From the NCBI GenBank assembly GCA_001244265.2, contig CDLV01000009.1:248001-312000 (forward strand): a DNA stretch of 64,000 nt. The letters are read 5' to 3'. The position numbers and the translations under genes are program-made. Each line of letters opens with the position of its first letter. Positions within the stretch are counted from its first letter, which is position 1. Of the stretch, positions 34,230 to 58,746 are shown in pieces. Under the pieces are notes generated by a model that saw only the letters and a list, made by a program, of their open reading frames with translations, was not told the DNA's origin and made no database searches. The stretch comes from Microbotryum violaceum. Taxonomy: Eukaryota.

Positions 34230-34400
34230 TATGGGTGGGGACCCGAAAATTAAGACGGAGGACGACGATGATAACACAAATCGCTCGCGAGATGCGAGAA
34301 ACGGGCCGGTGCGGTGTCCACCAATCCGATACTTGGATCCAAATGCCCCAGTCAAGCGGTTACTGGTTCCCAGAAGACAAATGAGAGAGAGAGAACGCAA
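34230..34400 (-). mobile_element. Degenerate 3'UTR relic of an L1-like element (family C-like)
   Basis: Shares GATGATAACACAAA..GATGCGAGAAAC..GTCCACCAATCCGATAC..CAAGCGGTT..AATGAGAGAG with 37200-37350 and 51080-51230. Confidence 0.8.
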
Positions 34401-34649
34401 GAAAGGGAAAAAAATTCTTTGTAGAATCTCTTCGTCCTATCACCCCCACTTCCTATTGACCCGAATTCCTTCTTCCCCTAATTAAGGGGTTTTCTTTTGC
34501 TTTTTCCTGACTTTGCGACCGTGATAACTGAATTCTCACGGCATTTCTCTGCTGATCACAACGACTGCAAATAGCTACCCTCTTGGTTATGAGCTGATGT
34601 ATCAAATAGTACAGAAGTCGAGAATCCGATGGCGTTTTTGTCCTTTCGC

Positions 34650-34778
34650 TCTTTTGAAACTCATTGCTAGTTTGCCTTCTTTTTTTGGGGGGTTGTAGAA
34701 ACTGTTTATCATATTTATGAGGCGCCGTTGCTAACACGAGCGCCGCAGAAAAAAGAAAAAAGAAATGCGCGCCGCGCG

Positions 34779-34819
<41 letters not shown>
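34650..34819. mobile_element. Mosaic of very short L1-like 3'-terminal stubs, ending in a plus-strand poly(A) tail (34779-34819)
   Basis: TGAAACTCATTGCTAGTTTGC resembles the family B end (43201); TGTAGAAACTGTTTATCATATT resembles the family C end (51029); 34711-34740 is the near reverse complement of 37148-37177. Confidence 0.65.
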
Positions 34820-34822
<3 letters not shown>

Positions 34823-37082
34823 TCCTCGTCCTCGACTCGGATGTTGCCCCTCGGGAGCAGTCGGGAGGAGCAGTCGGGAGCAGTCGGGAGCTCTGAAGCT
34901 TTGAGTCGCCGAGTGGCTGAGAGGTGACGAGTCTCCGTCTGCTTCGGTCCCCTTGAGTGCCCAACGCCCCGAGATGGCTACGTTGCCGCCTGTTCTCACC
35001 CACCTTCAAGACGGCGATCAGCATGCCCTAGGGACGGAAGTCGGCGACGAAGTGCTGGACGAAGAAGCCAAGACAGCGCTATTCGAAGAGATCCGAGTTC
35101 AAGGTTTCCAATCTAATGCTCTTGAGATTGAGGAGGCGCGGCGGAGATATTGGTCGCTGTTCGATGGTCGGAAGAGAACCTTGCAATGTGACAGCTTTTC
35201 AAATCATACCCTATCGCTCGCTAGCTGGAATTGATGGTCCAAGCTGGGCCTCATCCGAGTGACAAAGTGACAGCCGCGCAGTGTCGCCGATGCGCCGATC
35301 ATCTCTGTCTCGCACAAGAGTCAAGATTTGGTACATGCTACAGATTTTATCTATAGTTTCAATCCGAACTCGCTAGTCTACAACGCAAGGTTAGTCTCGT
35401 GGCCGCGGGGGACAAGAGGTTCGTTCCGAGCGTCGAAGGGAAAAAACCTCCGAAGGCGCGTTCGACAAGGCGGGGTAGCAAGGCGAGTGAGATCTTCTGG
35501 AGGTTCGGTCGAAGAGCTAACGGTAGCATGTTCCCTTGAATCGGCAAGTGATTGCATCTGCTGCTCAATCACCTGCCTTGGCTGTCGCTTCGGACCAAAG
35601 TTCGGTGGCGGAGGTAACGTTTCCTCCTCTGATCCCTCTTCGGATCTGAACTGAGAATCATCCCCTGAATCCTTTGCTTCCCCGCAAAGATGTCCTGAAC
35701 TTGAGGACTCTCCGCACTTGATTCCGAAAGTCCCGACGAAGGTGATTCATCCTCGCTCGCTTTGTTGTCGTCGTCGTCCCGGCAGATCAACACTTGCGCT
35801 CTTCCCCAGTCTTCCTCTTCTTCTGCTTGCTCCCCACTTGCAAATCTTTGCACGCCCTTGCCCTTCCTGCTCTCCTCCTTACTAGCGGGCATCAAGTGCA
35901 TCGCTTCGGCGGGGGAGGGGGAGGGGGCGTGCGAAGAAGATTTATCGAGCCCTAGCTGAGTGCTACTCAGCCGGCCACGCGCCGAGCGTACCGCTGGTTT
36001 CAAGAGCCCACCCCCATTGCGATCATTCGCATGTACCGGAGATGATCGCGACGTCCTTGCGTCGCTCGAGGTCATCGGCTAAAAGCCGGGTCGGGCGATG
36101 GCGCGGCGGGAGCTGGATGACGGGTGGTCGAGGCGCGACTCGACGACTGCAAAAGAGTTGAGCTCGATCCCTTGAGGATGTGGAAAGAGTCGAGCCGGAT
36201 TTGAAGGTATTTGACCAGCCGTTAACGTAAGCCCAAGGCACATTGTCCCGGATCTAGTCTACGAAAGCGAGAGCCGAGGAATCAGCAATGGGACACAGAA
36301 CAAGGGGCGGCCAACGGCCAAGGTGAATCGACGAGACTGACCTGTTTCCTCAAGACCCAGGTTATGAGAGTTGATCAGCTCCAGATATGTTGCTGGACCT
36401 CGTTTCTCGGCCGCGACCCTAGCTTCCGTCTTGCCGAAAGCCATCGCGCGTTGTTCAATTGAGCGTAGATCGGCTCGGCGAGCTTCGATTTTGGCAGCCA
36501 TGGCAGCGAATTGTGTTTCATTTTCTGGAGCGTTACCACCATGTTCATCATTTCGAGCTGTTGAGCTGGAGTGAGTGAAGCTTGAGGTTGAGGTTGAGTC
36601 TGAGCGGGCGGTTGAGCAACGAGAAAAGGAGGGCGCGAATGGGCCTAAGAACAGTCGGGCGCTCGCCCCACCACGCGCTCGATACGTTGTTGTACCAAAA
36701 GAGGTGCATCGCCAGCAGTTGCAGCGCCAAAATAAGAGGCCGTATCGGAATTCAAGGCCAAGCTGAACAAATTGTCGGTCGAACCAGATGTTGATCCGTT
36801 CATGTTCATTGGGAGAGGCGAGGGGAAGAGAGTGGCAGGAGGAAAAGAGGCAAATCCAGGCCGAACTCGAGGCGGTTGCCTGGGCGCTGGGTGCGGGAGG
36901 GTGCGGGCCTCAGGGCCAAGCAGCACTGCAGCAGTAACAGCAGCAGGCTCAGCTAGGTGGGTGCAGAAGAGCTGATAGCTACAAATGAGACTCATGAGAG
37001 CTTTCTCTGTCCCATGGATTGGAGGGAAGTCGTGCCATGCCATGGGTCATGACGGACGACCTTGCGGCATGACTGTGTTGTG

Positions 37083-37083
<1 letters not shown>

Positions 37084-37113
<30 letters not shown>

Positions 37114-37800
37114 CTCTTCTCTCGTCTTTTTTTTTTTCGCGCGAAACTCGTGTTAGCTCCGGCGCCTCATACATATTGCCCCAATTCCTCTGATTGGCCT
37201 ACGGAAAAATTAGATGGAAGTCGACGGTGATAACACAAACCGCCCGCAAGATGCGAGAAACGCGCCAAGTCCGGTCCACCAATCCGATACTTCGGATTCA
37301 AGTGCCCCGCCAAGCGGTTGCCCCCCCCCCCCCGGGAGATGAATGAGAGAGGGAAGGAGAGAAAGAGAGAGAGAAACGAAAAGAACTAGCTTACTAACGA
37401 CAAGAGGCCCACCCCGCTGCCACTTCCCAACTCGGTCGAGACAAAGACAGGAGAGCGACTGCGCAGCTACCCTGATCCGCGAAGTCCCAAGTCTATGCTC
37501 GGTCACAACAAGACCGGGTGGGGACCCCTCAAAACCCTCTACCTCAGCAGTCCCTGGCCCTCAAAGCCCACTTCTGCCCCCCCCCCCCCCACGGTTGCTC
37601 CCTCCCAGAGACGAATGAAAGGAAGATTGAAGATAGTACAAAAGGAATCGGGAAACGATGGAGGAGTTGTTGGTGGTGGTACATGTGTTGTACAGACGAA
37701 TCCGATCATAGTTGACAGTTGAACCTTCTTCGATCTTTTGACTTCAGCCCCCCCCCCCCTGAGACCGCCATACCTCTCTCCTTGAAGCCCCTTAATTTTT
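37084..37800 (-). mobile_element. 5'-truncated chimeric L1-like 3' fragment with poly(A) tail
   Basis: T-tract from 37084; 37167-37575 resembles the family C 3'UTR (51041-51451); 37590-37797 resembles the family B 3'UTR (43508-43706); joined at a poly-C run. Confidence 0.85.
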
Positions 37801-40782
37801 TAATTTTTTTTTTTTGACTGGGGCTCATAAATTGCTATCCTTCGGGTTGGCTGGGACCGCTACAAAAAGAGCTAAAGGAGGTTATAAAGCAACGACGGCA
37901 AGCAGTTGGGTGAAAGTCAACCCCCTGCGCGCAAAGAGCGCTGCGCAAATCAAAACCCGCCGAGCACCTAACGCGGACTCCAACGGGCGGTGAGTACTGC
38001 TGCCGCTTCACGTCCCAAGAGCGGGAGCAAAGATACTCGAAAACCAGGCAAGAGCGCCTAGAGAAAGAAGGGGGAGAGTATACAGAAAGTCACGACTGGG
38101 GATACGGAGAACCAGGAATACTAAGACAGAGAGGAGGGGAACACACCCGAGGGGCCAAGGTAGGGGTCGAAGCCGGAGGTAGAGGTCCCCAGGGACTAAC
38201 AGACCGCAGCCAAGCCCCAGCTACTCGTCACCCCGACAGCGCCTGATGTCCTCCCTTGGCTGAATCTCGAGTGCTGGCTGTTGAGCCGTCGGGGCCGAGC
38301 GAAAAGCGATCCAATACAACAAAACGAGCCTCGCCTTGACGCGAGGATATTGACCAGAAACGAGCGACCTTCCTTCCCGAGCCATGCCGTAGATCTTGAC
38401 CAACGCGAACGAACGAACCATTCAACGGAATCCAACACACGGCTTAGGAGTAAAAGGAGAAGTGGCTGAAGCGTAGTCAACAACCGAGCAACAGGAACGA
38501 GAAGAGGAAGGGAAGGGAAAAAAGGGGGAAAGGAGAGGGAAAAACTTCACAAAGCCTCCAACGCAAAGATAATCGACCTGGCTTGCCGATCCATCCAAGA
38601 ACTAAAAAACCGCTACTGCGCAAAGTAGAGAGAGAGAGGGAGAGGTGCGCAGCCTTCCACTGCGCAACAAGTTCCAAGACAGTCAGCTTCTAAAAGAGGA
38701 GTCGACCTCCGAAAAAGAAGGGAGGAAAGGAGGGGAGGAAAATGGGAAGGAAGGACTTAACTCGGTCATCACACCTCCCAATCTCGAGCCCCAGGCACAA
38801 AACCCGCTCGAGAGAGAAAATCTCGCTCGAACGCTCTGAGTGCACTGGGGAGCGAGGGAGGGGCCACGACCTTGTCCAGCTCGAACCGCTGATGAACGCG
38901 CCAGCGGAGCAGGTGCAGCCGCTGGAAGCCGATCGCGCAGGCCAGCCGAACCCACATCCATCTCGAGGTCGTTCTCCCACGACCCCACAAAAGGGGAGCC
39001 CCATAGTCAGCTGCTCCGGAGTGAACGTCGACGGATCGACGTCGGTATCCTCGATGCCCAGCTTGTCGAACAGAATGCGAAGCACCCCACCCCAGAAGCT
39101 GGTCGAGTACGCGCACTCGAAGAAGTAGTGCGACACCGTCTCGATGACCGCTGCATCGTTGCCGCAGAACAGACACGTCGGCGAAGAGGCATGACCCTGA
39201 GTATGCTGCCTCTTGCGCGTCGGCGTCACGTCGTACATGAGCCGCCAGTGGGTGTCCTGCTCCACAGCAGACGCAAACCGGTCATGAAGCCATCTCCAGA
39301 AGCGCTTCCTATCGCTCTGAGAAGTCCCATCACGGAAACGCTTGACACGATCCTCCCTCCCTGGGAACCGAACCACGTTCACAAGCCGACGAAGCTTGCG
39401 AATAGTGAACGGTCGGGTGAGCCCAAAGAAGTTGAAGCACCGAGGACGGGGAGCCTCCTTGAGAGGTATCCGAGCAGGTCGCAACGCGGTCTTGGGCAGC
39501 AAGGCTTTCGCCTTGAGCAACTGACCCACGCGCGACCACACGTGCTCGTGCTGTAGGGCGGGTTCCTTAGAGTGCTGCCAGAACCCGCGTCGATGACCAA
39601 CCAGAGCCCAGCCCTTCCCTTCGTCCCTCCAGTACAGGTCCGCGATCTGCGCAAACTTCGCCACTGCGTCCGCATCGTCATATGCGTGCTTGGCACCTTC
39701 AGCATAGAGTGAAGGGAGGCGAGGCGGAAGCGAGAGCAATTCGGGGAGCGTAAGGAGTTCGGACTTGATGGTTGGAACTGTGACCCTGGCCGCTGCAACG
39801 ACTGCCCCCCAGCGCGTCGAGTCGCGATACAGCTTCTCGACCCGAGCCGTGCTGCTGAAGAACCCCCACGGACTGAAATCGCGGGTCGCAGCGACGAGGG
39901 ACCTCCAGCTCTCGCGAGCTAGGGGCGCCCAGATCGCCTCGTTCGAGCCCGCCACAGCATCCCAAAATCGAAGCGCCACCGAATGAACGATGTCGCCGAT
40001 TGAAATCAAGCCCAAGCCACCGTCCTCCCGAGCCTGGAACACGAAATCGCGAGCGACGGTATTTCGCCCTGCTCCTCCCCAAACAAAATCCGTAAGTGCT
40101 GTCTCCGCCGCCTTAATGAACCATTGAGGCGGTATGTCGAAGGACAGCACGTGGAGGACCGTCGAGATGATGTGAGCGTTGGCATAGAAGACCTTCCCAC
40201 TCGGCGAAAGTGTCCGGTCTCCAGCGGCGCGGGTCTTGGCCTTGATCCTGTCAAGAACATGGGTCCAAAACAGTTTCGAGTCACCGTGGCGAAAGAAGGC
40301 ATAGCCGCACCACTTGAAGCTCTCCCCTCCTGCACCGTTGGCAGCGCCGCGCAGTCTCGTCCCGAAGCCAGTTCGGTCCGAGTGGTAGCACCAGCGTCTT
40401 GTCCGTGTTGGTCTTCCCGTTGGTTGCCTCGTACCACGTCTGCGACAGCGTTTCCAGCTTCGACAATGCCGCCGGTGACTCCACTACCACCACAGCATCG
40501 TCGGCAAACGCCAGATGCGTAAGCTGCGCACGCGGCCCCCCTGGCCACACCTTAGTAGAAGTCAATGTGACCGTGCACCAGTCCGCCCGCCATGGCTCCC
40601 AATGTGTGGTAGAACCACCGCCGGTGTGACTTGGGTGCACCGTCATATTGACTTCTACTGTCCCCTTCAATTGATTAAACAACTGAAGCCAACCAACTTA
40701 ATCAATTGTTCAACTCGTGACCGATCTTAGTTTGCCTTGCGGCAGTGACAGACGCTACCAAATTGGAAAACAAAGGAAAGTT

Positions 40783-40854
40783 TGGCTGAACTGAGAATTG
40801 AACTCAGGTCCACTCTATTAATCAGAGTTGCTCTGACCGCTGAGCTACTCAACC
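40783..40854 (-). tRNA. tRNA-like cassette/pseudo-tRNA, copy 1 (apparent anticodon TTA in a non-canonical loop)
   Basis: GGTTGAG TA GCTC AGCGGTCA GAGC A ACTCT GATTAAT AGAGT GGAC CTGAG TTCAATT CTCAG TTCAGCC A folds into a full cloverleaf with A and B boxes; TTTT follows downstream. Confidence 0.75.
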
Positions 40855-41087
40855 AGTAGGAATAGATGAATATGACGGTGCACCCAAGTCACACCGGCGG
40901 TGGTTCTACCACACATTGGGAGCCATGGCGGGCGGACTGGTGCACGGTCACATTGACTTCTACTGTCCCCTTCAATTGATTAAACAACTGAAGCCAACCA
41001 ACTTAATCAATTGTTCAACTCGTGACCGATCTTAGTTTGCCTTGCGGCAGTGACAGACGCTACCAAATTGGAAAACAAAGGAAAGTT

Positions 41088-41159
41088 TGGCTGAACTGAG
41101 AATTGAACTCAGGTCCACTCTATTAATCAGAGTTGCTCTGACCGCTGAGCTACTCAACC
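41088..41159 (-). tRNA. tRNA-like cassette/pseudo-tRNA, copy 2
   Basis: Identical to 40783-40854, offset by 305 bp. Confidence 0.75.
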
Positions 41160-42399
41160 AGTAGGAATAGATGAATATGACGGTGCACCCAAGTCACACC
41201 GGCGGTGGTTCTACCACACATTGGGAGCCATGGCGGGCGGACTGGTGCACGGTCACATTGACTTCTACTACCTTCTGCAGGTCGAGCGCGATCCCGCGCC
41301 GAACGAGGGCGTCGAGGAAGGGCTGGAACGTGATGTTCCAAACCGGGCACGAGAGGGGATCCCCCTGACCGAGACCACACAGCAACCGCACCAACTCCGT
41401 GGGGAACCCATTGATGAGGTAGCGCACCCCAGAGTCTCGGGATCGTACAGAGCGCGCAGCAGGGAAATGAAACGCTCACCAAAGCCAAAGGCCTCGAAGA
41501 CGTCGAAGATCCATGCGTGATCGACCCGATCGTACGCGCTCTGCTGATCCAAGGACAAGAGGGCGCCCTCGGGGAAAACTTCAGTGCCTAGCGACTTGAG
41601 TTTTTCGAGAAGGAGAGTGAGATGACTTCCCGCGTCTGCTGAACGTCTTGATGGCATGAACCCGTGTTGCGCCGGCGGCAAAAGCTCGCCGAGCACCCCA
41701 TTGAGTCGCGCCACCAAGACCTTGCTGAGGACCTTGTAGGTTGTCTCGCGCAGTGTGATCGGTCGATATGCCCCAGTGATTTCAGATTGGCCCCCGGTTT
41801 GTTCTTGGGCAAAAGCCGCACCAGCCCCTCTGCCAAGGACGCCGTCATTTTGCCGCCCTCCCAAATCGAGTTGAACAAGTCCAACAGCTTGGGAGCGAAG
41901 TAGGTCGGCAGCGCCTTGAAAAGCTCATACGGAATGCCCGAAGGCCCCGGTGATCGCCCTGAATCCGTCTTCTTCAACGCCGCTTCGACCTCGGAAAGGT
42001 TGAAGGGCTCGTCAAGCGCCACTCTGGCTTGAAGGGGCAGCCGACGACCGAACGTAGGGTCCGAGCGGTCGTCATCGTAGCATTTCGCCGCGCGAATAGG
42101 GTCGAGCAGGGACCGACGTGGGTTCGTCGGGTCGCCACGAGCTGGGTCCGGCGTGAAGAGCGACTGTGCGTGCCGTGAAGCAATACCCAGCGCCTCCTGC
42201 ATGTCAACGGTCTCGGTGCCATCCACATCCTCCAGCGAGACGATGCTCGTCTGGCGACTCCGGCGGTTGAGACGCGTGCGAATGCTTGCCGATTGACCTT
42301 CCCTCGAGTCGACTGACGGCACATGCGCACGAATGCGCAGCCACTGAGCCTCCTTTACCGCCAACTGATCCAACTGCGACTTGGCGAGAGCATAAGCAA

Positions 42400-43178
42400 T
42401 TTTTTTTTTTTGACTGGGGCTCATAAATTGCAATCCTTCGGGTTGGCTGGGACCGCTACAAAAAGAGCTAAAGGAGGTTATAAAGCAACGACAGCAAGCA
42501 GTTGGGTGAAAGTCAAACCCCTGCGCGCAAACAGCGCTGCGCAGATCAAAGCCCGCCGAGCACCTAACGCGGACTCCAACGGGCGGTGAGTACTGCTGCC
42601 GCTTCACGTCCCAAGAGCGGGAGCAAAGATACTCGAAAACCAGGCAAGAGCGCCTAGAGAAAGAAGGGGGAGAGTATACAGAAAGTCACGACTGGGGATA
42701 CGGAGAACCAGGAATACTAAGACAGAGAGGAGGGGAACACACCCGAGGGGCCAAGGTAGGGGGTCGAAGCCGGAGGTAGAGGTCCCCAGGGACTAACAGG
42801 CCGCAGCCAAGCCCCAGCTACTCGTCACCCCGACAGCGCCTGATGTCCTCCCTTGGCTGAATCTCGAGTGCTGGCTGTTGAGCCGTCGGGGCCGAGAGAA
42901 AAGCGATCCAGTACAACGAAACGAGCCTCGCCTTGACGCGAGGATTTGACCAGAAACGAGCGACCTTCCTTCCCGAGCCATGCCGTAGATCTTGACCAAC
43001 GCGAACGAACGAACCATTCAACGGAATCCAACACACGGCTTAGGAGTAAAAGGAGAAGTGGCTGAAGCGTAGTCAACAACCGAGCAACAGGAACGAGAAG
43101 AGGAAGGGAAGGGAAAAAAGGGGGAAAGGAGAGGGAAAAACTTCACAAAGCCTCCAACGCAAAGACAATCGACCTGGC
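42400..43178 (-). mobile_element. 5'-truncated family A copy (3'UTR only, with poly(A) tail)
   Basis: 42412-43178 is a near-identical direct repeat of 37816-38582, preceded by a T-tract. Confidence 0.95.
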
Positions 43179-43182
43179 GCAA

Positions 43183-43340
43183 TTTTTTTTTTTTTTTGTA
43201 TGAAACTCATCGCTAATTTGCAAGACGAGAAAACCCCCTACGGAACTAAAGGAGATGCTACCCAGCATGCACGATGATGACCACAACCGCCGCTTGATGC
43301 GTTGTAACTAGCAGAACAGACCAACCCGATACATCCGAGT
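43183..43340 (-). mobile_element. Family B 3'-terminal stub (about 143 nt plus poly(A))
   Basis: 43198-43340 is nearly identical to 43350-43492; each copy is preceded by a T-tract. Confidence 0.95.
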
Positions 43341-44725
43341 TTTTTTTTTGTATGAAACTCATCGCTAATTTGCAACACGAGAAAACCCCCTACGGAACTA
43401 AAGGAGATGCTACCCAGCATGCACGATGATGACCACAACCGCCGCTTGATGCGTTGTAACTAGCAGAACAGACCAACCCGATACATCCGAGTTCAAGTCC
43501 CCCCACCCACGGTTGCTCCCTCCCAGAGACGAATGAAAGGAAGGTTGAAGATTATACACAAGGAATCGGGAAAAGATGGATGAGTCGTTGGTGATGGTAC
43601 ATGTGTTGTACAGGCGAATCCGATTATAGTCGTACAGTTGAACCTTCTTCGATCTTTTGACTTCAGCCCCCCCTGAGACCGCCATACTCCTTGAAGCCCC
43701 TTAATTCTTTGAGACGCGTCGAACAAGGCCTCCGATGGCACAAACATCCCGCTCAATCCAAATGATTCACGTGGTCCAAAGGGGGAATGTAACCCCTGCG
43801 ACCGCAGCAATCACATACCCCTTGTACCCGTCTGCGCTGGATCTCCACCGCGGATTCCAAACCCCTTTTCGGTTACCAAAGTCGGCCCCCCTCGCGACCG
43901 CACGACCCCAGATCACCCCCATTCCAATGACTGCAACTGCGAAACAGGCCTACTTCGCACAAAAACACACAATCCAGAGATTTCCGGGGAAAGTCACGGA
44001 GCATGTGACAGTCCATTGGACACGCCTCGGTCGGGTGCAGCGCGGGCGGGTGGCCGTCAACACCGGCGCGCGGCTGGAGACAAGGGCGGGGTATACCTTC
44101 CGCAGGGGCCTCGCTTCCCTGCGGCGTACTCCCAATCTCGGAACGCACACTCGAGTCCCCTTGTACGTGCAGGTGGTTCCCAATCACCGCAGATACTGGG
44201 GAAAGAAGGAGCATGAGGCCCACGACGGTGATGTCATTGGGTGGGACCTCGCTCGAGTGTGGATGTGTATGGCGGTTCGGTACCCGAGTCACCCGCCGCG
44301 GGGCCGCGACTCCGAGCGAGCAGCAAAGCAAGGAGAGGCGAGCCACGCAGGCAGTTTGTGCCGGCCTTGAACAGGAGATCACGGGGTCGCTCGACCGAAA
44401 GAGAAGACAGACCCGGCCCTTGAGAGGAGTGGAAAACTCACGGTATAGTCCAGGAGAGGGCCAAGGGGATACGTTTTCGCTGTGTGTCATCGTGATGTGG
44501 CAGAAGCTCGAACCAAGGGCGACAATGCCCGCCGGCGCAAAGAACCCGAGGCTCCTGGGGAGTACGGAAGCCTATGAGGAGGAATGGTAAAAAGAGCGAG
44601 AGAAAACAGGTTCAGTATTCTGGCGTGTTTGGGAGACATTTTGGAGATTGAGAAGGAGGGAAAAGGGACTTGTGATTTTTTGGGGGTTTGGTTTTTGCTT
44701 GGATAGGGAGGGAGGGACATCTACT

Positions 44726-47700
44726 TCATCGCGCCAATCTGAGCTCCAACCTCTCCTTCAGTCCCGCCATCTCCTTGTCCATGCTCGACATCGCTCTGGC
44801 GTGGCGATGGAGATCCCAGCGTCGGTTGCTGAGAGTGTCGAGCGCCAGCGCAATGAAGGCGCGGATTGGACGCTTTTTCGACGTCGGAAGGCGAGCGCGC
44901 AGTCGAGGGAGGCCGTGCTCGATCTGAAGTGCCGTGTAGTCGAGGTCGAGGATCGACACGACCCCCAGCGCGTCGCAGATAATGGACCTAGCTGCTTGCC
45001 AAAATTGAGAAGAGTCAGGGCAATCATGCCAAAAGTGAGTAAAGTCATCCTCCACCCCTGCCAGGCTGCATGCCTGCACAAGGCAGCAGGCCGAGTCGCC
45101 ATGCCGCTGCACAAACTGGCGCTTCCGCGTTGGCGTGAAGTGGTACGCCAGCTTGAAGTGCACCTCGCGCTCGCGGGCCGTGGCGGGCCCGGTGTGGAAC
45201 CACCCCAGAAGAGTCGCCTTTCTTTGGGTGTGGCGAGTGATCCAGGGCGTTGTGTGTCGTCGAAACGTCGATGGTTGATGACGCGTCGAAGTCGCGCAAT
45301 GGTGTAGGGTCTGTCCAAGCTCAACATTCTCCACTGATTAGCAAGCAAGGGGGCGGAGGGGAGGGGAAGTCTTTGATCAGGCATGCCGACCGGAGTCGCT
45401 CTGGGCAAGATGTGCTCGAGGGGACCGCTGGGCCGGGCTCCAGGTGCTCCAACGACACGAATGACGGGTGGTCGACGTGCGAGGACGGGAACAGGAGGCG
45501 GAAGCGGCGGGATGAAGCGATCGCCTGCGACCTGGATCCACGCCTGGACTTGATCGCGCTTCCATTGCCAAAGGTTGGACAGCTCCGAGCCGTCGCCTTG
45601 GGGATGCTTCTCAGGGGTCCAGGGCACCGTTGGAGCTGCGGGATATTGAGCTCGAGCATAGATGTCAGCGATGGTGCGTTCGAAACTGAAAAGCTTCGCC
45701 AAACGCTTATCCTGCTCCGAGAACGCCCGCGAGTCATGCAGACCCGGTTGGAGGGGGGAAAGAGAAAGAAGATTGGAGACCGAAAGTTTGGCAGGATCGA
45801 CGACGGCAGGGTAGCGTTCAGCGACCGAGAGCACCGCTCGCCAGCGGGGATGTAGCTCCCGGGGTGCGTCGGCGTTCCTCCACGTCCACAGATCCGCAGC
45901 AAAGTCAAAGGTCGGAAGCGCTCGCCGGATGGAACTCCGAGCCAGATCGCCCCAAATCGCAGTTGACCCGCCGGCCAGCACATCCCAGATCCGTACCGAG
46001 ACTGAATCCACCACATCCTGGATGCTCACGACGCTGAGACCGCCTCGCGCCCGTGCCGTGAAGACGACCGATTGCTTGTAGTCGCTGCGCCGCGGGCCTC
46101 CCTTCACAAAGTCAGCAAGCTTGCGCTCGATCGACTTGATCACGTCGGATGGCGGGATGTCGGCGGAGAGAGAGTGCAGCACCTTGGAGATGCCGTAGCG
46201 GTTAAGATAGAAAGCCCGGGTATGGTGCGTCATCCATCGGTCGCGCACCGATAGAATCACTCGATCAACCCTTCGCTCAAGATCATGGAATCCCAGCCTG
46301 TTGTTGCCGTCAGGCGCAAACTGGAGACCGATCCAGGGAAGAGACTCGTCCGGTGCCACGAACGACAGTTTGGACAAGTCCGCGCGATCCCACAACGTCG
46401 CGCCCAATGGCATCACCACAGTTTTGTCGGTGTTTAGACGTCCGTTCGTCGCGAGTCGCCAATCCCGAGCTAACGCCTCGAGCGAAGCAATAGCTTCCGG
46501 CCCAGCAACAGCGACGACGGCGTCATCCGCGAACGCCAAATTGGTGATGCATCGAGTCTGCGGACGATGAGCCAGCTCCGGAAGAGTGATAGTCAGCGCA
46601 ATGTTGCGTCGACTGAGAGAATCAAGGAAGGGTTGGAATACCACATCCCAGACAGAAGAAGAGAGAGGATCGCCCTGGCCAAGACCGCACAGGAGTCGCA
46701 CCGTCTCGGTGAGGAAACCGTTGACAATGTACCGCGCTGTGGACGTCTCGCCGTTGTAGAGCATCCGCAAGACGCGCTGGAAAGGTTCCGGCGCGCCGAG
46801 AGCCTCAAACACCGCAAAGACCCAATCGTGCTCGACCATGTCGTAAGCCGAGCTCTGATCCAGGGAGAGGAGCGCTGCTGTCGGGAACTCTGCCCCACGA
46901 CCCCTAATCTCATCGATCAGGAGCCGCAGATGCAAAGCCGCGTCCGCTGGTCTTCGCCCCTTGACGAACCCATGCTGTCCGGCCGGAAGAACATCGGGAG
47001 GATCCGGTTCAGACGAGCCACGTAGACCTTGGTGAAGATCTTGTAGTCGCATTCCCGCAAGGTGATCGGACGATACGATTTGAGGTCGCACCGCGCTGCA
47101 CCAGGTTTGTTGTGTTTGAACAAGAGGCGCACATTGGCCTGGCTCTGTTGTGGAGTAAGGGAGCCTCGAGTAATCAGCTCGTTGTAGGCTCGAGTCAAGA
47201 GAGGGGCCCAAAGCAGGGGGCAGGCTCGATACATCTCATAGGGGACCCCTGAAGGACCCGGAGATCGACCTTCGTGCGTGGTTCGAATCGCTGCGAGCAC
47301 CTCGGCCTCGCTGATGGGCTCGGCCAGAATGTCGACGTGCGAATTCGAGAAGCGCCGAAGGAAGCGAGCGTCGGAAAGCGGGTCGTCACAAGGTCTTGCT
47401 GATCTGATGGGTCCCAAGAGCTCATCCCGCATCGTCACGACCTGTTCCGGATCCTTCGCTTCGACAAGGTAGTGCTGCTGGAAATGAGAATGGGTGTGCT
47501 CGAGCGTGCGCTCCATGTCAGTGGTGAGCTCGCCATCAGCGAGCCGGATACTCTGAAACTTCACATCCCGGGACCGAGCAGCCAGTTTGGCATGTACCGG
47601 ACGACTGAGACGTTCCTCGGATGCAATCTCGGGCACGTGCGCCCTGATCCGGGACTGCCTTGCTCGCTCGTTCACAAGTTTGGTGAGAGCGTCGTGGGTG

Positions 47701-48764
47701 TTCGTCCAGTCGATAATATCGAAGGGGCTCAGCACCCGACGAGACTCAATGTCCTGCAGTCGAGATACCAGCATCATTTCGAGGGCGTTGCGCTCCCGAA
47801 ACAGACGCCGAGACAGCTCGAGAGCTTGGACCCGAGACTCCGAGAGTACGCGCTGAAGGTCCGCGACCGGATCCCCAGACGGTGCCTGCTCAAGGAGACG
47901 AGTGACGAACTCCTTAAACTCGGCGTGTCTGAAGGTCGACGAGTTGATGCGGGTCAGAAAATGAGCCGCCTGGGGAAGGCAGAGCTCCTCTTCGACCTCG
48001 GCACCACTTGCGCGCAGCCTAAATGTGACCGTAACCGGTCGATGATCCGACATGGATCGAGAGATATTGTACAGAGTAGAAGCAGAAACGACCCGTCGCT
48101 CGTGTCGCCGCTGCACCAGAACAAAGTCGATGCGCGCGCGCGAAATGAGCTGGCCGTCCTTGCTGAGATGTGGGCGCGTGGTCGCCGGCGACAGTGGGTG
48201 CATGAGCCGAATGGCATCCGTGTACGCCCCGTCGAGCCGAGACATAAGCACAGGCCAGTGGTGGGTGTTCGGGCGGTCCACCTGTTGCGCTCGATCCACC
48301 GCGGGAATAGGGCAGTCGTTCAGATCGCCCGCGATGAACCGAATGTGAGAGGAGACGGTCGCCCGAAAGTGAAGGGAGGTGAAGAAGAGGAGGCGCTCGG
48401 CGGGTTGAACCGGAGCGTAGATATTGTTGAGTTCGACGACGTCCGTCGAACCCCGCACATCGAAGGTGGTCACGAGTAAGCGCCCGCCAAGAGACTGACG
48501 CGTGCGACGATGACCACCGAGAAGAGGAGAAGAGCTTGGAATCAAAGTGAGGCAGTGTTGAGAAAAGTAGGCCTCGCCCTGGTGGGACTGGGCGTACTCG
48601 TGGCGTATGTGAGATTGTCGTGCTTTAGGAACATTATGTTCCTGGAGAAGGATAGCAGAAGGGGGAGGTGTGAGCGAAGTGAGATACGAAAGAAGCAGAC
48701 GACGTCGTTCAGGGGTATTGAAGCCCCTGTTGACGTTCCAGGTCATGATGATGAACTCAATCAT
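44726..48764 (-). CDS. Family B ORF2: APE endonuclease + reverse transcriptase + Cys motif (frameshifted as assembled)
   Basis: MTWNVNRG, LLQE, NIYAP, AGDLND, RIDFVL, SDHRPV; SPGPSG, YRPITL, QHGFVKGR, GLGQGDPLS, AFADD; CLVQAC..DDFTHFWHDC. Confidence 0.93.
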
Positions 48765-50743
48765 TACGATCGCGCCTTCGTTGCAGCAGCAGCTCCCTTG
48801 ATGGACAACATAGGTCCGAATGTGGGTGACGGGAGAGGGTCCGCAGCAGTCGATTCGTTCCAGTCCGATGTGCGCGCAACGCTGGTGAGACGCTGGATAC
48901 GCTCGGACCGGCGAAGACCCTGGGAAGTTCCTTCTTCCACCTCCTGCTTGGGCTCGGGCTCGGGATCACACACTGGACCTGGAGACGGCGAAGGCATCCA
49001 ACCGGTCACAGACGGGGTGCGGTCCAACTCGGTGATCTCATCGTACAGACCGGCATCCTGTTTGCGCTCGCGATCCGACACACGATTCATCCAGTCGTCA
49101 GGAAGGCCGTCCATATCAAGCTGATGGTGACTGGCCGATCGGAACCGCGTCAGCTCAGGGGTCGTCGAGACAACCTCAGGCATAGACCCCGTCTCGGCCG
49201 ACTGCGATTCCCCTTCTTCCGCGTCACTCGTCTCCGTGTGTTCCTCCTGGTTCCCCTCCGCTCCGCGGTCCTGCAGATCCGACAGATCCGAAGGCTCCAA
49301 CGGCGGCACCTCCTGCTGTGGTTCCAGCTGTGCCTCGACTACGCTCATCGCGTCCTCGTCGTCCTCGAGAGCCTGAGCGGGCTCCCCCTGCGCCTCTTCG
49401 GCCACGTCGCCGGCCAGACTTGCGAATGGGTTTGCGGCGACGATGAAACCGCAAAGGGCGGATGCTGTGAGTGTAGAGCTTTGTGAACGAGCAGGGTAGA
49501 CTCGTGGTGAGTTGTTAGTGGCCCTTGTGGGAGATGCGTTCTTCTTTGAACGCTTGGACGCGACAGGGGACATTGGGGGAGAGGGAGAGGCTACATCACC
49601 TCTGCGTTGTTTTTGGGGGTCGAGGTTTGCTCGATGCTGCTTTGGGGCTCGGCCTGGGGCCTTTGGTTGTTGTTATTTTTCTGGGCGGCCTGCTGACGCT
49701 GGACCGGCTTTTGAACGCAGTTGTCGGAGTGGCCTACAAAACCGCATCGGCGGCAGGAGGCTTCGGCCTCGTAGTCGTGGCGAAGGGGGTGAGAGTTGCG
49801 AGTCGTCCTCGAAGGTCGATCCTCGTCGGTAGAACCTGTCGAAGTTGAGCACCGTTGTTTTTGAACAGATCGTCGTCGTCGAACTGGACGATGGCCGCGT
49901 AGTTTCCTCGAGCAACGAGATACGAGCCTTGAACGACTGTTAGAGGCTGCTGGAGTTGGAGCAAGTCGCATTTGTGGCCGTCCCCGGTAAGCTTGGCGAC
50001 GACGCCTTGCAGTTTGCTCCAGAGGTCGTCATTCGTGTATTCAGCCTCAGGACTGATGATGAAACGCAGTTCGACGACGTTCTTGACGAACGCCAAGCGC
50101 TTGCGGACTTGGGCAAAGGAGCGTTTCCACTCGATCTTGGTCGCCGCGTCGTGGACTTGGTCGAGCGCCGCTGCGCTAGCGCAGCGCACCACGAACTTGA
50201 ACCGGGTGTTGCCGTTTTGGATGATCGACTCCGGTGCGACTCCATGGATGACTGGAGCGTATTTCTGGAGCTCGGGGGGAGGACAACTCCTGCGGGCAGG
50301 TTAAAACACAACCACGTGTCGGGCGACAGGGTACGGAGCACCTTCGAGTACAACTCGGACTTCTCGCGTTCAGTGGCCACACCGGTGTGTTCGAACGTGA
50401 CTTCAAGAACGGCACCAGACGTGTCGGCGATTGGTTTCGTTGCATTGAGTGCGCTAAAGCGCAGGGAGGTGGCCCGGTCCTTGCCGAAGCCGAGTGCTTC
50501 TTTGAGCACAAGGATGCGGGTGCCCTGGCGTGTGCCATCTTCGACACTGATCATCTTCAGGATCCTCGCGACATCCTCCTTCCTCTTCTTCTCTTCATCA
50601 CGCTTTTCCTGGTACAGCGCTAGGCCGGGATTCCCTGGTCCCTCGGCGGCATCGGCCTCCGCCCCCGCGTCACCACGTGGTTGCCCCGTCGCTGCCGGCT
50701 CCGGAGGGCCGCGGCCCGGATCAGGCGGTGCCTGGTCGGACAT
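48764..50743 (-). CDS. Family B ORF1 (gag-like, zinc knuckle, acidic C-terminus; frameshifted as assembled)
   Basis: ATG 50743 MSDQAPPDPG; ATSLRFSALNA shared with family C; LRHDYEAEASCRRCGFVGHSDNC; stop TAA overlaps the ORF2 ATG. Confidence 0.85.
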
Positions 50744-50813
50744 TGGGTCGATAGCTGATGTAGCGGTTGATGTATTCGATGTATTGACGTTTGCCGAGGT
50801 AGGGTAGTGCGAT

Positions 50814-51008
50814 AAAGATGAAAGATGAAAGATGAAAGATGAAAGATGAAAGATGAAAGATGAAAGATGAAAGATGAAAGATGAAAGATGAAAGATGAAA
50901 GATGAAAGATGAAAGATGAAAGATGAAAGATGAAAGATGAAAGATGAAAGATGAAAGATGAAAGATGAAAGATGGAAGATGAAAGATGGAAGATGAAAGA
51001 TGAAAGAT
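50814..51008. repeat. Microsatellite (AAAGATG)n, about 28 copies, at the 5' end of element B
   Basis: Read directly; two GGAAGAT variant units near the right end. Confidence 0.97.
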
Positions 51009-51478
51009 ATCAAATGTTTTTTTTTTTCTGTAGAAAACGTTCATCATATTGCCCCAGTTCCTGTTCCCCCTGTTTTGGCCTACGGAAAAAAACTAGATGG
51101 AAGACTACGATGATAACACAAACCGCCCGCAAAAGTGCGAGAAACGAGCCAAGTCCACCAATCCGAGATTCGGATTCAAATGCCCTAGCCAAGCGGTTGC
51201 TCCCCCCAGGAGACTAATGAGAGAGAGAAAGAGAGATGAAGAGAAAAAAAGAAAGAAAAGAAATGTACTAACGACAGAAGGCCCACCCCACAGCCACTTC
51301 CCACTCGGTCGAGACGAAGACAAGAGCACGACTGCGCAACCACCACGACCCTCGACGCTCCAAGTCTCTGCTCAGTCACAACAAGACGCGGTGAAGGTCC
51401 CTCAAAACCTCCCCCATCGGCAGTCCCTGGCCCCTCAAAGCCGACTTTCTGCCTGTGTCCGCTGATCCCTCCCTTGAC

Positions 51479-54400
51479 TCAGAACCCCGAAGCCGAAGAG
51501 CGCGAGCCACACCGAGTCGACGCCAAATCGCGAGATGGTCCATGATCCGCAACGGTGAACCTGTAACAAATGAAAGATGAAAGCGATCTATTTAGTGTAC
51601 AGTAGGAGAAAATAATGTCACGAGAATTTGGTGTGTGTGTGTGGTGGTGGTGGGGGGAAAGTCGAACCCAGCCTCTACTGCCCTCTCCTCCCCAAGCTCC
51701 TCCCGCCCTCAGCTTCAACCTCTCCTCCAAGATGATCCTCCTCCTCACAACACCCTCCATCTTCGTCCCCCACTTCTGCATCCCCCACCTCCAGCTGCTG
51801 ATCATCTCCAAGACCAGCCCGGTGAATATTTCGATCGTCCTCCCCGCTCCTTCTTGATCGCGTAGACTGGCCTTGAGCTTCGGAAGTCCGAACATGCGTT
51901 GAACAGCCGTGTAATGCGTGTTGTCGATCGTGTCGAGCCCCAGTGCGTCGCAGAGCACGCTCCTTGCCGCGATCCAAACGTTCCCAGAGTCAACGCAGTC
52001 GAAAAAGTAGTGGTCGGTGTCGTCCACCGGCGCCTCGCAGACGAGGCACGCGGGAGAAGTGTCGTGATTCTGTTGGTGTTGCAGCTTGCGCGTCGGGGTG
52101 AAGCGGAGAATCAGCTTGAACCAAACTTCCCTCTCCCTCGCCGTCAGTGCCTTCGAGTTGACCGCCTTCCAAAAGCTCCTGAGGTCGTCCGGCTGCGGTG
52201 GTCCCTTGAGCCCGAGCGTGTTGGTAAAGGCCTTCGCGTTCAGGACCCGGCGGATGCGACGGATGGTGTACGGTCGAGCCATGTTCAGCAGCTTGTACTG
52301 GCTCGCCTGCTGTGGAAGCACCGGGTCCGGAAGGCGCTGCTCCATTGCGAAGCGGGCCACGGGCTTGGGAGAATCGCCTCGAGCGGTGCGCTGGTGCCGA
52401 TCCGGGGAGGCACGTTGAGCCGTCCTGCCGCCACCGCCACCGCCAAGGGCGTGTTCTTGTGTCGATCGACAGTAAACCGGTACCAGGCCGCGATTGCCAG
52501 TCGCTGCGGGAGCCCGCGTCGATCGTACTCGCTGTTGTCGCCGAGCACATCCGCCGGCGGCGTCCAAAGGTGAAACCCCCCACCCGCATACAACTCGCGC
52601 CGGTAGAGATCCGCCACCTTCGGGTAGCCCTGAAGACGAAGGTAGTCAGGTATATGAACCGCGTCGATGGTCTGTCTCCCTCTGATGGGGGTGTGGAGGC
52701 TGCCGAGCAAGGTGGGAAGCGCGAGCAGGTTCGCGGTGGTCAAGGTCCTCGGGTTGACCTGCGCGTCTTGCTGTTTCGGAACCCCAATGCTGCTCGCCAT
52801 CGGGGATGGAGGTCGCTGGGGATGGGAGTGGATGGATGTGGCCAGAGATCGGTGGCCAGGTCGAGGTCGGACTGAGCTCGCTGGAGTGCCACGCGCGCAA
52901 GTCCTTGCCAGATCGCGCCCGAACCGCCGAGAAGAACGTCCCAGATCCGTGCCGCAACCGCGTCCACGACGTCCTGCATCCTGATCACCCCGAGTCCCCC
53001 TTGAGCTTGGCTGTGAACACGATATCTCTGCCGTAGCTGGTCCTGCCCTTGCCCCACGGACGAAATCGACGAGCATGTCATCGAGCTTCTTGACGACTTC
53101 GGGCGGCGGGATGTCGGCTGCAAGGAAGTGCAGGATCTTGGGGATGGCGTACCGATTGACGTAAAAGGCACGGGTGTGGTGTGTGAGCCAGCGATGCTGA
53201 ACCCCTTCCAGCGTCGCCTCGAGGCGTTCGATGAGATTCGCGTAGGCGAGTTCGGTGTCGCCGCTCGGGTCGAAGGGGAGGCCGATCCACTCGAGCGACT
53301 CGCCTGCGGCCTTGACGACGAGCGGGCGTTGCCCGGGTCCCAGCGGCGTCCGATCGGTAGGACGACCGTCTTGTCCGTGTTGAGCCGGCCATTCGTTGCA
53401 TGCCTCCAGTCGAGCGCCAGGTCATCGAGCAAGTTGAGTGACCCCAAGCCCGCGACGGCGACGACAACGTCATCGGCAAAAGCAAGCGATGTAATGGCGC
53501 GGCTCTGTGGGTACGGATGAAGTGCAGGTATGGAGAGATTCAGCGCGATGTTTCGACGGTGTAGAGCATCCAGAAACGGCTGAAACACGATGTCCCAGAC
53601 CGACGACGACGCCGGGTCCCCTTGGCCGAGCCCACACGTCAGTCGTACCGGCGCCGTCAAGAACCCATTGATGATGTAGCGGGCCGAGGTCGAGTCACCC
53701 GAGTAGAGCATCCTCAGCACGCGAAGAAAGGTGGCAGGAGCGCCCAGAGCGTCAAAGATGGCAAAGATCCAGTCATGCTCGACGAGGTCGTAGGCGGACG
53801 ATTGGTCAAGAGATAAGAGTGCGGCCGCGGGGAACTCGGTCCTGCGCGCGCCAACTTCCTCGATCAGGAGACGAAGGTGTAGTGCAGCGTCAGCCGATCG
53901 GCGGTCCTTGACGAATCCGTGCTGCTGCGGCGGGAGGAGATCCGGTAGAATTTGGTTCAAACGGGCGACATAGACCTTGGTAAAGATCTTGTAATCGCAC
54001 TCGCGCAGGGTGATCGGCCGGTACGCCGAAAGTTCGGCGCGATCAGCATTCTTCTTGTGTCGCTTGAAGATGAGGCGCACGAGTCCTTGGCCCTGCTTGG
54101 GAGAGAGTGAGCCTCGCTCTATCATCGCGTTGTAGGCCTTGGTCAGCACCTTGGCCCACGCCTTGGGTGCGGTCTGGTAGAGTTCGTAGGGCACGCCCGA
54201 CGGTCCCGGCGATCGCCCCGGGTGCGTCGTCCCGATCGCGGCCACGACCTCGTCCTCGGTGATTGGTCGCTGGAGTAAGTCGATCTGCGATTCCGAGAGT
54301 CGGCGCAGAAAGAGAGGATCCGAGCGCGGGTCGTCGCAAGTCCGCGCCGCCCTGATCGGCGCGAGGAATTCGTCCCGAAGTCGGTCGACGCGGTCCGGGT

Positions 54401-57688: not shown

Positions 57689-57729
57689 GAAGTGAAGTGA
57701 AGTGAAGTGAAGTGAAGTGAAGTGAAGTG
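57689..57729. repeat. Microsatellite (GAAGT)8 at the 5' end of element C
   Basis: Read directly; followed by a T-tract at 57732-57744. Confidence 0.97.
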
Positions 57730-57796
57730 GATTTTTTTTTTTTTCCGTTTTAGCTATATAACGGGCCTTGTGGCCACCAATTTCACAGATTGCATG

Positions 57797-57868
57797 TCCT
57801 TCGTGGGACAACGGTTAGCCTTTCGCGTTTTCACCGCGGCGATCCGGGTTCGATTCCCGGCGGGGGAG
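57797..57868 (+). tRNA. tRNA-Glu(TTC)
   Basis: TCCTTCG..TCGCG TTTTCAC CGCGG..CCGGG TTCGATT CCCGG CGGGGGA G cloverleaf, 72 nt, Glu-type TCC/GGAG ends; one D-stem mismatch. Confidence 0.9.
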
Positions 57869-58459: not shown

Positions 58460-58746
58460 AGAGTCGCCCTTGCGATCAGCTTCGAGGGCAAAGCCAACGA
58501 CATCATGGGACCATCACTCAACCAACACAACCCCCGAACTGCTAACCCGTCGCTCTCGGGCTGCTCACTGGAGATCACAATTAACTCAATCGGACTTCTT
58601 GGTCAACTCGATCTTCTCGAGTCAATTGTGATCTCCAGTGAGCAGCGCAAGACCGACGGGTAGGCAGTTCGGGGGTTGTGTTGGTTGATTGATGGTCCCT
58701 TGATGTTGTTGGCTTTGCCCTCGAAGCTGATCGTAAGGGCGAGTCT
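58460..58746. repeat. Long inverted repeat (about 128 bp arms, about 31 bp spacer)
   Basis: 58460-58587 is the reverse complement of 58619-58746 with scattered mismatches. Confidence 0.92.

Follow-up and report, generated by a model that had tools for sequence, protein, structure and literature searches.

A conserved, strand-specific multibranch RNA structure in the 3'UTRs of diverged fungal L1-clade LINEs

For the L1 clade it is still debated by what means a LINE enzyme selects its own RNA from the pool of polyadenylated transcripts. Conserved 3' stem-loops with compensatory changes have been published for L1-clade LINEs of maize/sorghum and Chlamydomonas (PMC3472496), the ORF2 protein of zebrafish L2 LINEs binds the stem-loop of its cognate tail (PMC4176376) and human L1 has been proposed to carry a stem-loop in its 3'UTR (PMC5135761). 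Reported from fungi are the ENE, which is mostly linked to LTR elements (PMC12501189, citing Tycowski 2016), Zorro3 from Candida albicans, which integrates at poly(A) tracts (PMC1965478), and L1-clade elements of Microbotryum violaceum (Hood 2005, as cited in PMC3956500). In the literature we found no description of a structured 3' recognition signal in fungal L1-clade elements.

The block described here is ~145 nt long and is present in five copies in a 64-kb window (the whole stretch of DNA analysed, 64,000 nucleotides), all of them on the minus strand, the sense strand of the elements, in the 3'UTRs of L1-clade LINEs. The initial annotation had placed it at four sites, and alignment as well as a covariance model find it on this strand at every one of them, the span 43237-43520 comprising two copies. 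They comprise A51, A37, B43, a B mini-copy of 142 nt and, at 34 kb, a relic; A37 and A51 belong to the same family and the relic is A-like. Their positions and parts are:

51029..51225, minus strand: 3' module of A51, beginning with the CU-rich/G-run pre-helix and reaching the final base ahead of the A11 tail (51027-51017); alignment, covariance model (147 bits) and whole-module fold
51120..51199, minus strand: core of A51 with Y-shaped fold; MFE of the core alone
51198-51192 with 51127-51121, 51190-51147 and 51139-51128, minus strand: closing helix, long hairpin and short hairpin of the A51 core; MFE
51079..51113, minus strand: conserved, mostly unpaired motifs of A51, namely UCAUCGU (51113-51107), CAUCU and UUCCGUAGG (51087-51079); alignment and motif count
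51041..51052, minus strand: tail motif GCAAWWU..AUGA of A51, 13 nt 5' of the A-tail; motif scan and pair probabilities
43350..43541, minus strand: 3' module of the full B43 copy; alignment and covariance model (106.5 bits)
43515-43436, 43397-43389, 43373-43359 and 43349-43340, minus strand: core, UUCCGUAGG, tail motif and A10 tail of B43; alignment and fold
43198..43339, minus strand: B mini-copy, the last 142 nt of B followed by A15 (43197-43183); covariance model (45.7 bits)
37138..37345, minus strand: 3' module of A37; alignment and covariance model (135 bits)
37320-37237, 37206-37198, 37179-37167, 37137-37127 and 37113-37084, minus strand: core, UUCCGUAGG, tail motif, A11 and A30 of A37; alignment and fold
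34246..34414, minus strand: relic of an A-like 3' module with its core at 34362-34278; alignment and covariance model (116.8 bits)

The carriers show matches to Exo_endo_phos, RVT_1 and zf-RVT together with A-tails; an apurinic-type endonuclease upstream of the RT, a zinc motif at the C terminus and a terminal poly(A) give them the architecture of L1-clade non-LTR elements. Among solved proteins the best relative is the ORF2 protein of human L1 (E 7e-23), with R2 behind it (E 1e-12). Distant database matches bear the automatic name 'Transposon TX1'. Both A51 and B43 contain frame breaks, the mini-copy, which is placed after the A10 tail of the full B43 copy and is 99% identical to it, is 5'-truncated with its start within the 5' arm of the terminal hairpin, and the relic is decayed, without UUCCGUAGG and with a broken closing helix. 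In a motif count the exact 10-mer TCGGRTTGGT occurs five times and is confined to the block sites, and TTCCGTAGG, absent from the relic, occurs four times at block sites only (expected 0.31; 0/100 shuffles reach 4). Running the covariance model across the entire 64-kb window with filters off and E<=10 gave nine matches, five of which are the known copies (E 1.9e-42 to 1e-11), and the other four (E 0.97-9.3) were taken as noise. The five are all LINE tails, no partner SINE was found in the 64-kb window, and pattern scans of a collection of bacterial and archaeal contigs resulted in 0 loci among these bacteria and archaea.

Local alignment of the 3'UTRs of A51 and B43 finds a single alignable stretch, 51223-51107 vs 43539-43423, in which 90/109 columns are identical (score 52 vs a maximum of 31 in 50 shuffles), and the UTR around it is unalignable between the two families. 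Conservation of one stretch of 3'UTR between diverged LINE families, with no such conservation in the remaining UTR, is also seen in the 3' recognition elements of stringent-type LINEs. The ORF1 products of A and B share just 31-35% identity and the RT region is 66% identical at the DNA level over 1844 nt; in the core 29/78 aligned columns differ, a divergence similar to that of the RT DNA, which argues for an old and constrained block and against a recent swap. The distance from core to A-tail is 86-99 nt in A51, A37 and B43, and the distance from core to ORF2 stop varies from ~280 to ~1240 nt.

Each folded alone, the 80-nt cores of A51, A37 and B43 adopt the same Y shape composed of closing helix, long hairpin and short hairpin. 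The MFE of the A51 core has a z of -2.51, with 2/300 shuffles being equally stable, followed by A37 (-2.35), B43 (-1.92) and the relic core (+0.42). Over their whole length of 134-140 nt the blocks are no more stable than shuffled sequence (z +0.33 to +0.74), and neither are the 192-197-nt modules of A51 and B43 (z -0.19 and -0.33). The consensus fold of the minus strand reaches -22.83 kcal/mol with 28 pairs, that of the plus strand -14.88 kcal/mol with 16 pairs and a covariation term of +0.25. In DNA, the terminal hairpin forms an inverted repeat as well. Outside the core, two of four copies, A51 and B43 but neither A37 nor the relic, have a predicted second hairpin that closes 10-13 nt 5' of the tail, and pair retention in this predicted second domain is not above null (4/8 and 8/17 pairs). 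A long-range helix between UCAUCGU and AUGAUGA of the tail motif is predicted with a probability of 0.84-0.99 in A51 and B43; it is absent in A37, has no tail partner in the relic and was rejected as its mapping test did not go beyond the null.

Covariation is concentrated in the long hairpin, where nine of the 18 pairs differ between B and A. All nine still pair, four of them after changes on both sides, and with the same substitutions placed at random zero pair loss was seen in just 3/20,000 trials. The two-sided changes include U-A to C-G, C-G to G-C, A-U to G-C and U-G to G-U, the last three being additional to those of the initial annotation, and the change from U-A to C-G plus the wobble changes reported by the initial annotation for the terminal hairpin of B are present as described. 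A stem-loop with compensatory changes is therefore found from the single contrast of A vs B, the one independent contrast for covariation among copies that all come from the 64-kb window. The covariation proposed earlier holds for the long hairpin and not for the other two helices: the enclosing helix is present in the sequence but nearly invariant, the hairpin CTCGC..GCGAG of the relic is present as well but its change is one-sided, and neither closing helix nor short hairpin shows a two-sided compensatory change. When the structure derived from A51 is mapped to B43, 24/29 pairs are kept (null 17.5 +/- 2.0; 5/2000 trials as high), and the structure derived from A37 gives the same 24/29 (3/2000 null trials as high). 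Mapping the MFE structure of B43 itself to A51 keeps 17/28 pairs, which equals the null, and pair retention in the 34-kb relic is not above null. On the minus strand the four copies form 29, 27, 26 and 25 of 29 canonical pairs, on the plus strand 23, 23, 17 and 25. For B43 this means 26/29 pairs on the sense strand vs 17/29 on the other strand, since 9/26 kept pairs are G-U and G-U pairs are mismatches on the DNA or the other strand, and the suggestion that they function on the element strand alone is borne out. The fold common to three cores and the kept pairs of the long hairpin support the conclusion, already drawn in the initial annotation, that the block is a real, strand-specific multibranch RNA structure, and one that has been spared by substitutions.

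A further family, C, shares the tail motif. This motif is located 10-32 nt 5' of the A-tail in all three families, and 6/6 matches in the motif scan lie within element tails. Family C and a fragment adjoining it are arranged as follows:

37802..38582, minus strand: copy X of the family C 3' end, closed by A12 (37815-37804), with the tail motif at 37835-37825
42398..43178, minus strand: copy X', the last 781 nt of family C again, 98.3% identical and ending in A12 (42411-42400)
37581..37801, minus strand: B-like fragment, 89% to 43710-43499

No block is detectable in family C, where the covariance model gives no match. A predicted multibranch fold at 38005-37896, with a z of -2.05 the best of the window scan, is a candidate homologue for which the MAFFT alignment is loose and the covariance model is without a match. 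Copy X' directly adjoins the A-tail of the B mini-copy. The elements are arranged as a head-to-tail array, which integration at poly(A) tracts, as in Zorro3, would explain. Just past the 5' arm of its closing helix and a G-run (37590-37577), the B-like fragment gives way to an A-type 3'UTR (37578-37167). The end of the fragment lies within 43505-43499 in B43 numbering and the start of the mini-copy corresponds to 43491, so that two independent junctions are only 8-14 nt apart.

Searches for known RNA classes did not identify the block. Using Rfam, whose families include self-cleaving ribozymes, snRNA, tRNA and 5S rRNA, at gathering score, the entire window contains just three tRNAs, which lie elsewhere, and local scans at E<=10 gave two and five weak matches with a best E of 1.8 (15 bits vs a 55-bit threshold), so neither a captured known host non-coding RNA nor a ribozyme family is matched. 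The best of them are snoRNA-like (E 1.8-5) and fall on the other strand or on low-complexity sequence; those at a plus-strand UGAUGA-like box (E 1.8-4.7) were taken as chance. The idea of an unrecognised ribozyme, also raised in the initial annotation, found no support, as no self-cleaving ribozyme family matches at E<=10 in the local scans. A coding function was rejected because no frame is common to the copies and the lengths of the A/B indels are not divisible by three. B43 (43524-43499) and the chimeric junction (37606-37567) are the only places with a canonical G-quadruplex motif, which is thus not conserved.

With a probability of roughly 0.45, hence at slightly less than even odds, we propose that the block acts as a stringent-type template-recognition signal for the ORF2 protein. 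The module would then be a cis-acting structured RNA of the sense-strand 3'UTR in L1-clade LINEs of a Microbotryum-like fungus, built from a three-way junction of 80 nt with closing helix, long bulged hairpin and short hairpin, the single-stranded motifs UCAUCGU, CAUCU and UUCCGUAGG after it and the tail motif just before the poly(A). The ORF2 protein of the element would bind this fold on its own transcript, the A-tail would then pair with a nicked T-tract of the target, from which reverse transcription would begin. We infer this binding, and any role in priming, from the observed sequence conservation, strand, common fold and paired long hairpin. Counting against such a signal are the position of the core 86-99 nt from the tail, compared to the very end in classical stringent tails, family C without a detectable block, the lack of a partner SINE in the window and the frame breaks of A51 and B43, either of which may be inactive.

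The sense-strand fold, the spacing to the A-tail and the single-stranded motifs would equally suit a post-transcriptional element read by host factors in nuclear export of intronless mRNA, stability, 3'-end formation or translation, which we regard as possible but rather unlikely. The tail motif near the A-tail in all three families, including the block-less C, fits a polyadenylation signal, and TE RNAs with protective 3'UTR structures have been published (PMC12501189). However, the one well-defined class of this kind, the ENE, was rejected, as no predicted fold contains an internal loop in which two U-rich tracts face each other between G-C pairs: the internal loops are 1-3 nt long and not U-rich, A37 and A51 have a single U-run that is either unpaired or lies outside a loop, and a U5 run is missing from B43. 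Furthermore, host mRNAs should carry a site for host factors as well, and the model detects no others in the 64 kb, admittedly a small sample. It is improbable that the block is functionless, with 3' ends exchanged between families by template switching of the RT and the apparent constraint arising by chance. Such exchange would account for the B-like fragment fused to an A-type 3'UTR at 37.6 kb and for the mini-copy as tandem copying of 3' ends, but the divergence of the core matches that of the RT DNA (29/78 columns vs 66% identity over 1844 nt), a neutral swapped end should align up to the tail whereas the similarity is confined to the block, and 9/9 changed pairs of the long hairpin still pair where just 3/20,000 null draws show no loss.

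Less probable again is an RNA cleavage site (self-cleaving or for a host nuclease), or a hot spot for RT pausing and template jumping, at the 5' base of the long hairpin, to which the two independent junctions 8-14 nt apart might point. We give the same low credence to a new class of processed RNA, in which site-specific cleavage at this base, self-catalysed or by a host nuclease, would be followed by end-to-end template jumps by which the RT joins the ends; this would explain why both chimeric junctions (37.58 kb and 43.34 kb) lie within 8-14 nt inside the fold. Against cleavage or jumping, there are n=2 events, the G-run and annealing of non-templated C could alone explain the first junction, and besides the missing ribozyme match at E<=10 the loops are variable and no catalytic core is recognisable. 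The compact, multibranch and non-coding nature of the block, with A/B indels that are not multiples of three, would also be expected of a captured host non-coding RNA fragment or a SINE-like module, but Rfam gives no match at gathering score in the window and nothing credible at E<=10 locally, and no free-standing copy exists in the window, making such an origin very improbable. Least credible of all is an element of the DNA or the antisense strand, e.g. a protein-binding palindrome or an antisense promoter: although the terminal hairpin is an inverted repeat in DNA, 9/26 kept pairs of B43 are G-U and mismatched there, leaving 17/29, and the consensus fold of the plus strand is weaker with its covariation term of +0.25.

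Template-recognition signals have already been published for plant and algal L1-clade LINEs, and on our best reading the fungal block would add to this known kind. The statement in the initial annotation that the L1 clade relies on poly(A) was too strong, with conserved L1-clade 3' stem-loops already published (PMC3472496). If the proposed recognition signal is true, it would provide a fungal case of a family-spanning, covarying 3' fold in poly(A)-ending L1-like elements beside the plant and algal ones and would support that specific tail recognition is old in the L1 clade and was later relaxed in mammals. The 80-nt core is a concrete mutational target, and with the covariance model it might be possible to seek partner SINEs in Microbotryum genomes. 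The stringent-type LINEs ZfL2/UnaL2 (L2 clade) and LINE1-1_ZM and L1-1_CR (L1 clade), some of which end in poly(A), likewise conserve part of the 3'UTR where LINEs have diverged in other regions, and there too the hairpin is backed by compensatory changes (PMC3472496, PMC3747384 and PMC4176376). Stringent-type LINEs carry a single terminal hairpin of ~45-50 nt, whereas here an 80-nt three-way junction ends 86-99 nt before the tail; unlike them, our elements have no partner SINE in the window and come from a fungus. R2 falls into another clade, has another type of endonuclease and lacks a poly(A) tail. The likeness to its 3'UTR RNA, which is bound by the R2 protein, lies in a multi-helix 3'UTR fold serving as template signal for target-primed reverse transcription (PMC11194090). 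With the ENE, a poly(A)-clamping triple helix of plants and fungi, the block shares its nature as a structured 3'UTR element of a polyadenylated TE transcript (PMC12501189), but it lacks the U-rich internal loop between G-C pairs by which an ENE is defined. Zorro3 is likewise a fungal L1-clade element ending in poly(A), for which, unlike the block-bearing elements, the passages considered describe no structured 3' signal (PMC1965478). The stem-loop proposed for the 3'UTR of human L1 and Alu, by its description, also belongs to an L1-clade element and has a stem that is bulged a few base pairs away from its loop (PMC5135761), yet it was proposed from positional conservation within one family, whereas the pairing in the fungal block is kept across two diverged families.

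The block, a conserved segment of about 145 nt in LINE 3'UTRs, was found at all four sites at which the initial annotation had seen a conserved structured RNA. Copies lie in two elements of family A (A51 and A37), in one of family B (B43) together with a 142-nt mini-copy, and in a decayed relic at 34 kb that is A-like by sequence comparison. The exact 10-mer TCGGRTTGGT occurs five times and TTCCGTAGG four times in the window, both at block sites only (for the latter 0.31 expected, with 0 of 100 shuffles reaching four). A covariance model from four copies, run across the window with filters off (E≤10), gave nine matches: the five known copies, at E 1.9e-42 to 1e-11, plus four others with E 0.97–9.3. 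When the A51 and B43 UTRs were aligned locally, the sole stretch to align was 51223-51107 vs 43539-43423, with 90 of 109 aligned columns identical and a score of 52 vs a shuffle maximum of 31. Every copy compared comes from the 64-kb window; two scans for the block pattern in a prokaryote-only genome collection found none.

The elements are carried by the minus strand, and their A-tails appear as plus-strand T-runs. The RT-bearing frame 52740-54773(-) is 81–87% identical to proteins from three Microbotryum species, its distant matches bearing the automatic name 'Transposon TX1'. Pfam domains in the elements are an apurinic-type endonuclease, RVT_1 and zf-RVT, and the closest solved relative is the human L1 ORF2 protein (E 7e-23), with R2 behind (E 1e-12). 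Elements of the L1 clade are on record for Microbotryum violaceum (Hood 2005, as cited in PMC3956500). Using tblastn of element frames against the window we distinguish three families, whose copies are listed below with the neighbouring repeats and A-tracts.

Elements, simple repeats and junction A-tracts of the array
about 57.7 to 51.03 kb, minus strand: copy A51 of family A (tblastn)
about 51.0 to 43.2 kb, minus strand: copy B43 of family B (tblastn)
42.4 to 37.8 kb, minus strand: family C, 5'-truncated (tblastn)
50814-51008, sense strand: simple repeat (TTTCATC)n at B43
about 57690-57730, sense strand: simple repeat (CACTT)n at A51
junctions: A13+T before A51; A11 before B43; A15+TTG before X' (one of two copies of the C 3' end); A12+TT before C; A12+TT before a B-like fragment

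A and B share 51–71% identity in RT protein pieces, 31–35% in ORF1 and 66% over 1844 nt of RT DNA, with frame breaks in both. A37 and A51 can be aligned across the entire 412-nt UTR and therefore belong to one family. From 37084 to 57744 the LINE copies are arrayed head to tail, each beginning directly after the A-tract of the preceding one; a 781-nt repeat (37802-38582 and 42398-43178, 98.3% identical) represents the family C 3' end with its A12 tail. This layout fits poly(A)-tract integration, which has been described for Zorro3, an L1-clade element of a fungus (PMC1965478). B43 and A51 each have one of the simple repeats before their 5' end, and after both repeats the 5'UTRs start similarly (ATCGC.CTACC). 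A tRNA-Glu(UUC) gene at 57797-57868(+) lies about 55–110 bp from the A51 5' end and points away from it; as this is a single case, we make no claim of tRNA targeting. At 58460-58746 a 288-nt stretch is 86% identical to its own reverse complement, forming a large palindrome.

The family C RT is split by an insert of about 750 nt (40524-41277 in the minus-strand view; tblastn breaks at 41278 and 40523) whose terminal inverted repeats measure about 97 nt (40553-40649 is 100% identical to 41174-41270 and 40869-40964). With these, and possibly a TA duplication, it resembles a MITE. Inside, a 305-nt tandem unit holds two tRNA-like genes (40782-40855 and 41087-41160; Rfam 49.9 bits), for which ARAGORN reports the anticodon UUA ('tRNA-Stop'). 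A tRNA anticodon loop is expected to carry U33, and given the A at this position the gene may be a pseudo-tRNA.

The core of the block spans 80–85 nt from CAACCG to CGGUU. Folded singly, the A51, A37 and B43 cores adopt one topology, in which a closing helix encloses two hairpins, one long and bulged and the other short (z-scores -2.51, -2.35 and -1.92). The relic core does not adopt it (z +0.42), and neither whole 134–140-nt blocks (z +0.33 to +0.74) nor 192–197-nt modules (z -0.19 and -0.33) are more stable than shuffles. RNAalifold sides with the element strand, giving -22.83 kcal/mol, a covariation term of -1.38 and 28 pairs on the minus strand vs -14.88 kcal/mol, +0.25 and 16 pairs on the plus strand. 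Across the four sequences, 29, 27, 26 and 25 of the 29 A51 pairs are canonical on the minus strand, compared with 23, 23, 17 and 25 when the plus strand is read; the 26 vs 17 of B43 agree with the earlier statement that the G-U pairs work only on the element strand.

To avoid circularity, the structure for the retention test was drawn from A51 alone and mapped onto B43 via the sequence alignment, the null being identical substitutions placed at random positions. B43 keeps 24 of 29 pairs vs 17.5 ± 2.0 in the null (5 of 2000 draws as high), and starting from A37 again 24 of 29 (3 of 2000). Four short-hairpin pairs scored as lost from A51 to B43 trace to a misalignment of one to two bases; the long hairpin has alignment gaps in its loop alone. 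Of the 18 long-hairpin pairs, 9 are altered in B43 and none of these is lost, four having changed on both sides (U-G to G-U, A-U to G-C, C-G to G-C, U-A to C-G). Zero pair loss was reached in 3 of 20,000 null draws and at least four two-sided changes in 0.6%. Transitions account for only 14 of the 29 substitutions, so the retention is not explained by a transition bias. The covariation claimed initially is seen in the long hairpin, but the closing helix and short hairpin show no two-sided changes in the four-sequence alignment. In that alignment, from which the structure itself was derived, 96.3% of 109 cells pair (slid controls 24–44%) and the observed covariation is matched in 9 of 500 column shuffles. 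In the reverse mapping, from B43's own MFE structure to A51, 17 of 28 pairs are kept, which is the null level, and retention in the relic is not above null; all statistical power is that of one evolutionary contrast, A vs B.

Outside the core, a CU-rich stretch on its 5' side is predicted to be able to pair with a G-run, a helix that retains 9 of its 10 pairs, 6 of these altered (null fraction 0.04). Conserved unpaired motifs follow on the 3' side (UCAUCGU, CAUCU and UUCCGUAGG). The distance from core end to tail is 86–99 nt in A51, A37 and B43, that from the ORF2 stop to the core about 280 up to about 1240 nt. A tail motif, GCAAWWU(0-6)AUGA, chosen post hoc from these sequences, occurs six times in the window against 0.30 expected, each time 10–32 nt before an A-tail of A, B or C, and may serve in polyadenylation or in priming.

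Tail motif copies (motif scan)
37167-37179, minus strand: tail motif
37825-37835, minus strand: tail motif
42421-42431, minus strand: tail motif
43207-43221, minus strand: tail motif
43359-43373, minus strand: tail motif
51041-51052, minus strand: tail motif

Pairing of UCAUCGU with the tail motif is predicted in A51 and B43 (pair probabilities 0.84–0.99) and not in A37 or the relic, and the mapping test gives it no support. Family C has the tail motif, the block being undetected there by the covariance model; a prediction for the corresponding place in C gives a multibranch fold. A canonical G-quadruplex motif (43499-43524(-)) overlaps the 5' arms of the B43 core only; without a counterpart in A, we rejected a conserved G-quadruplex.

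The 142-nt B mini-copy sits after the A10 tail of the full copy, and the B-like fragment ends at a 14-G run (37577-37590), where it is joined to an A-type UTR starting 26 nt past the A stop codon. Both junctions look like template switches. Their breakpoints, the end of the B-like fragment (37577-37590) and the start of the mini-copy (43339/43491), are 8–14 nt from each other, at the long hairpin's 5' base; this may mark a hot spot for template jumps or cleavage, or be coincidence.

We favour, at slightly less than even odds (about 0.45), a reading in which the ORF2 protein of the element would recognize the block as a stringent-type template signal, jointly with the A-tail. Its main rival, an element bound by a host factor for export, stability or 3'-end formation, is in our view less probable, and the data accord with either reading. 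Neutral shared ancestry of the block is unlikely, because the core has diverged and similarity is limited to the block. The ribozyme offered as an option in the initial annotation finds little or no support in Rfam searches, and captured-ncRNA and DNA-level readings likewise have little or no support.

Among TE RNAs, ENE elements are known, but their defining loop, as given in PMC12501189, is absent from the block. The predicted template signal has published counterparts: L1-clade LINEs of monocots and Chlamydomonas possess conserved 3' stem-loops with compensatory changes (PMC3472496; PMC3747384), zebrafish L2 LINEs have a tail stem-loop bound by ORF2 (PMC4176376), and a stem-loop has been proposed for human L1 (PMC5135761). 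In the literature searched, we found no account of a signal like this in L1-clade elements of fungi. The finding adds a new fungal L1-clade member with a predicted function to a kind of signal that is already known.
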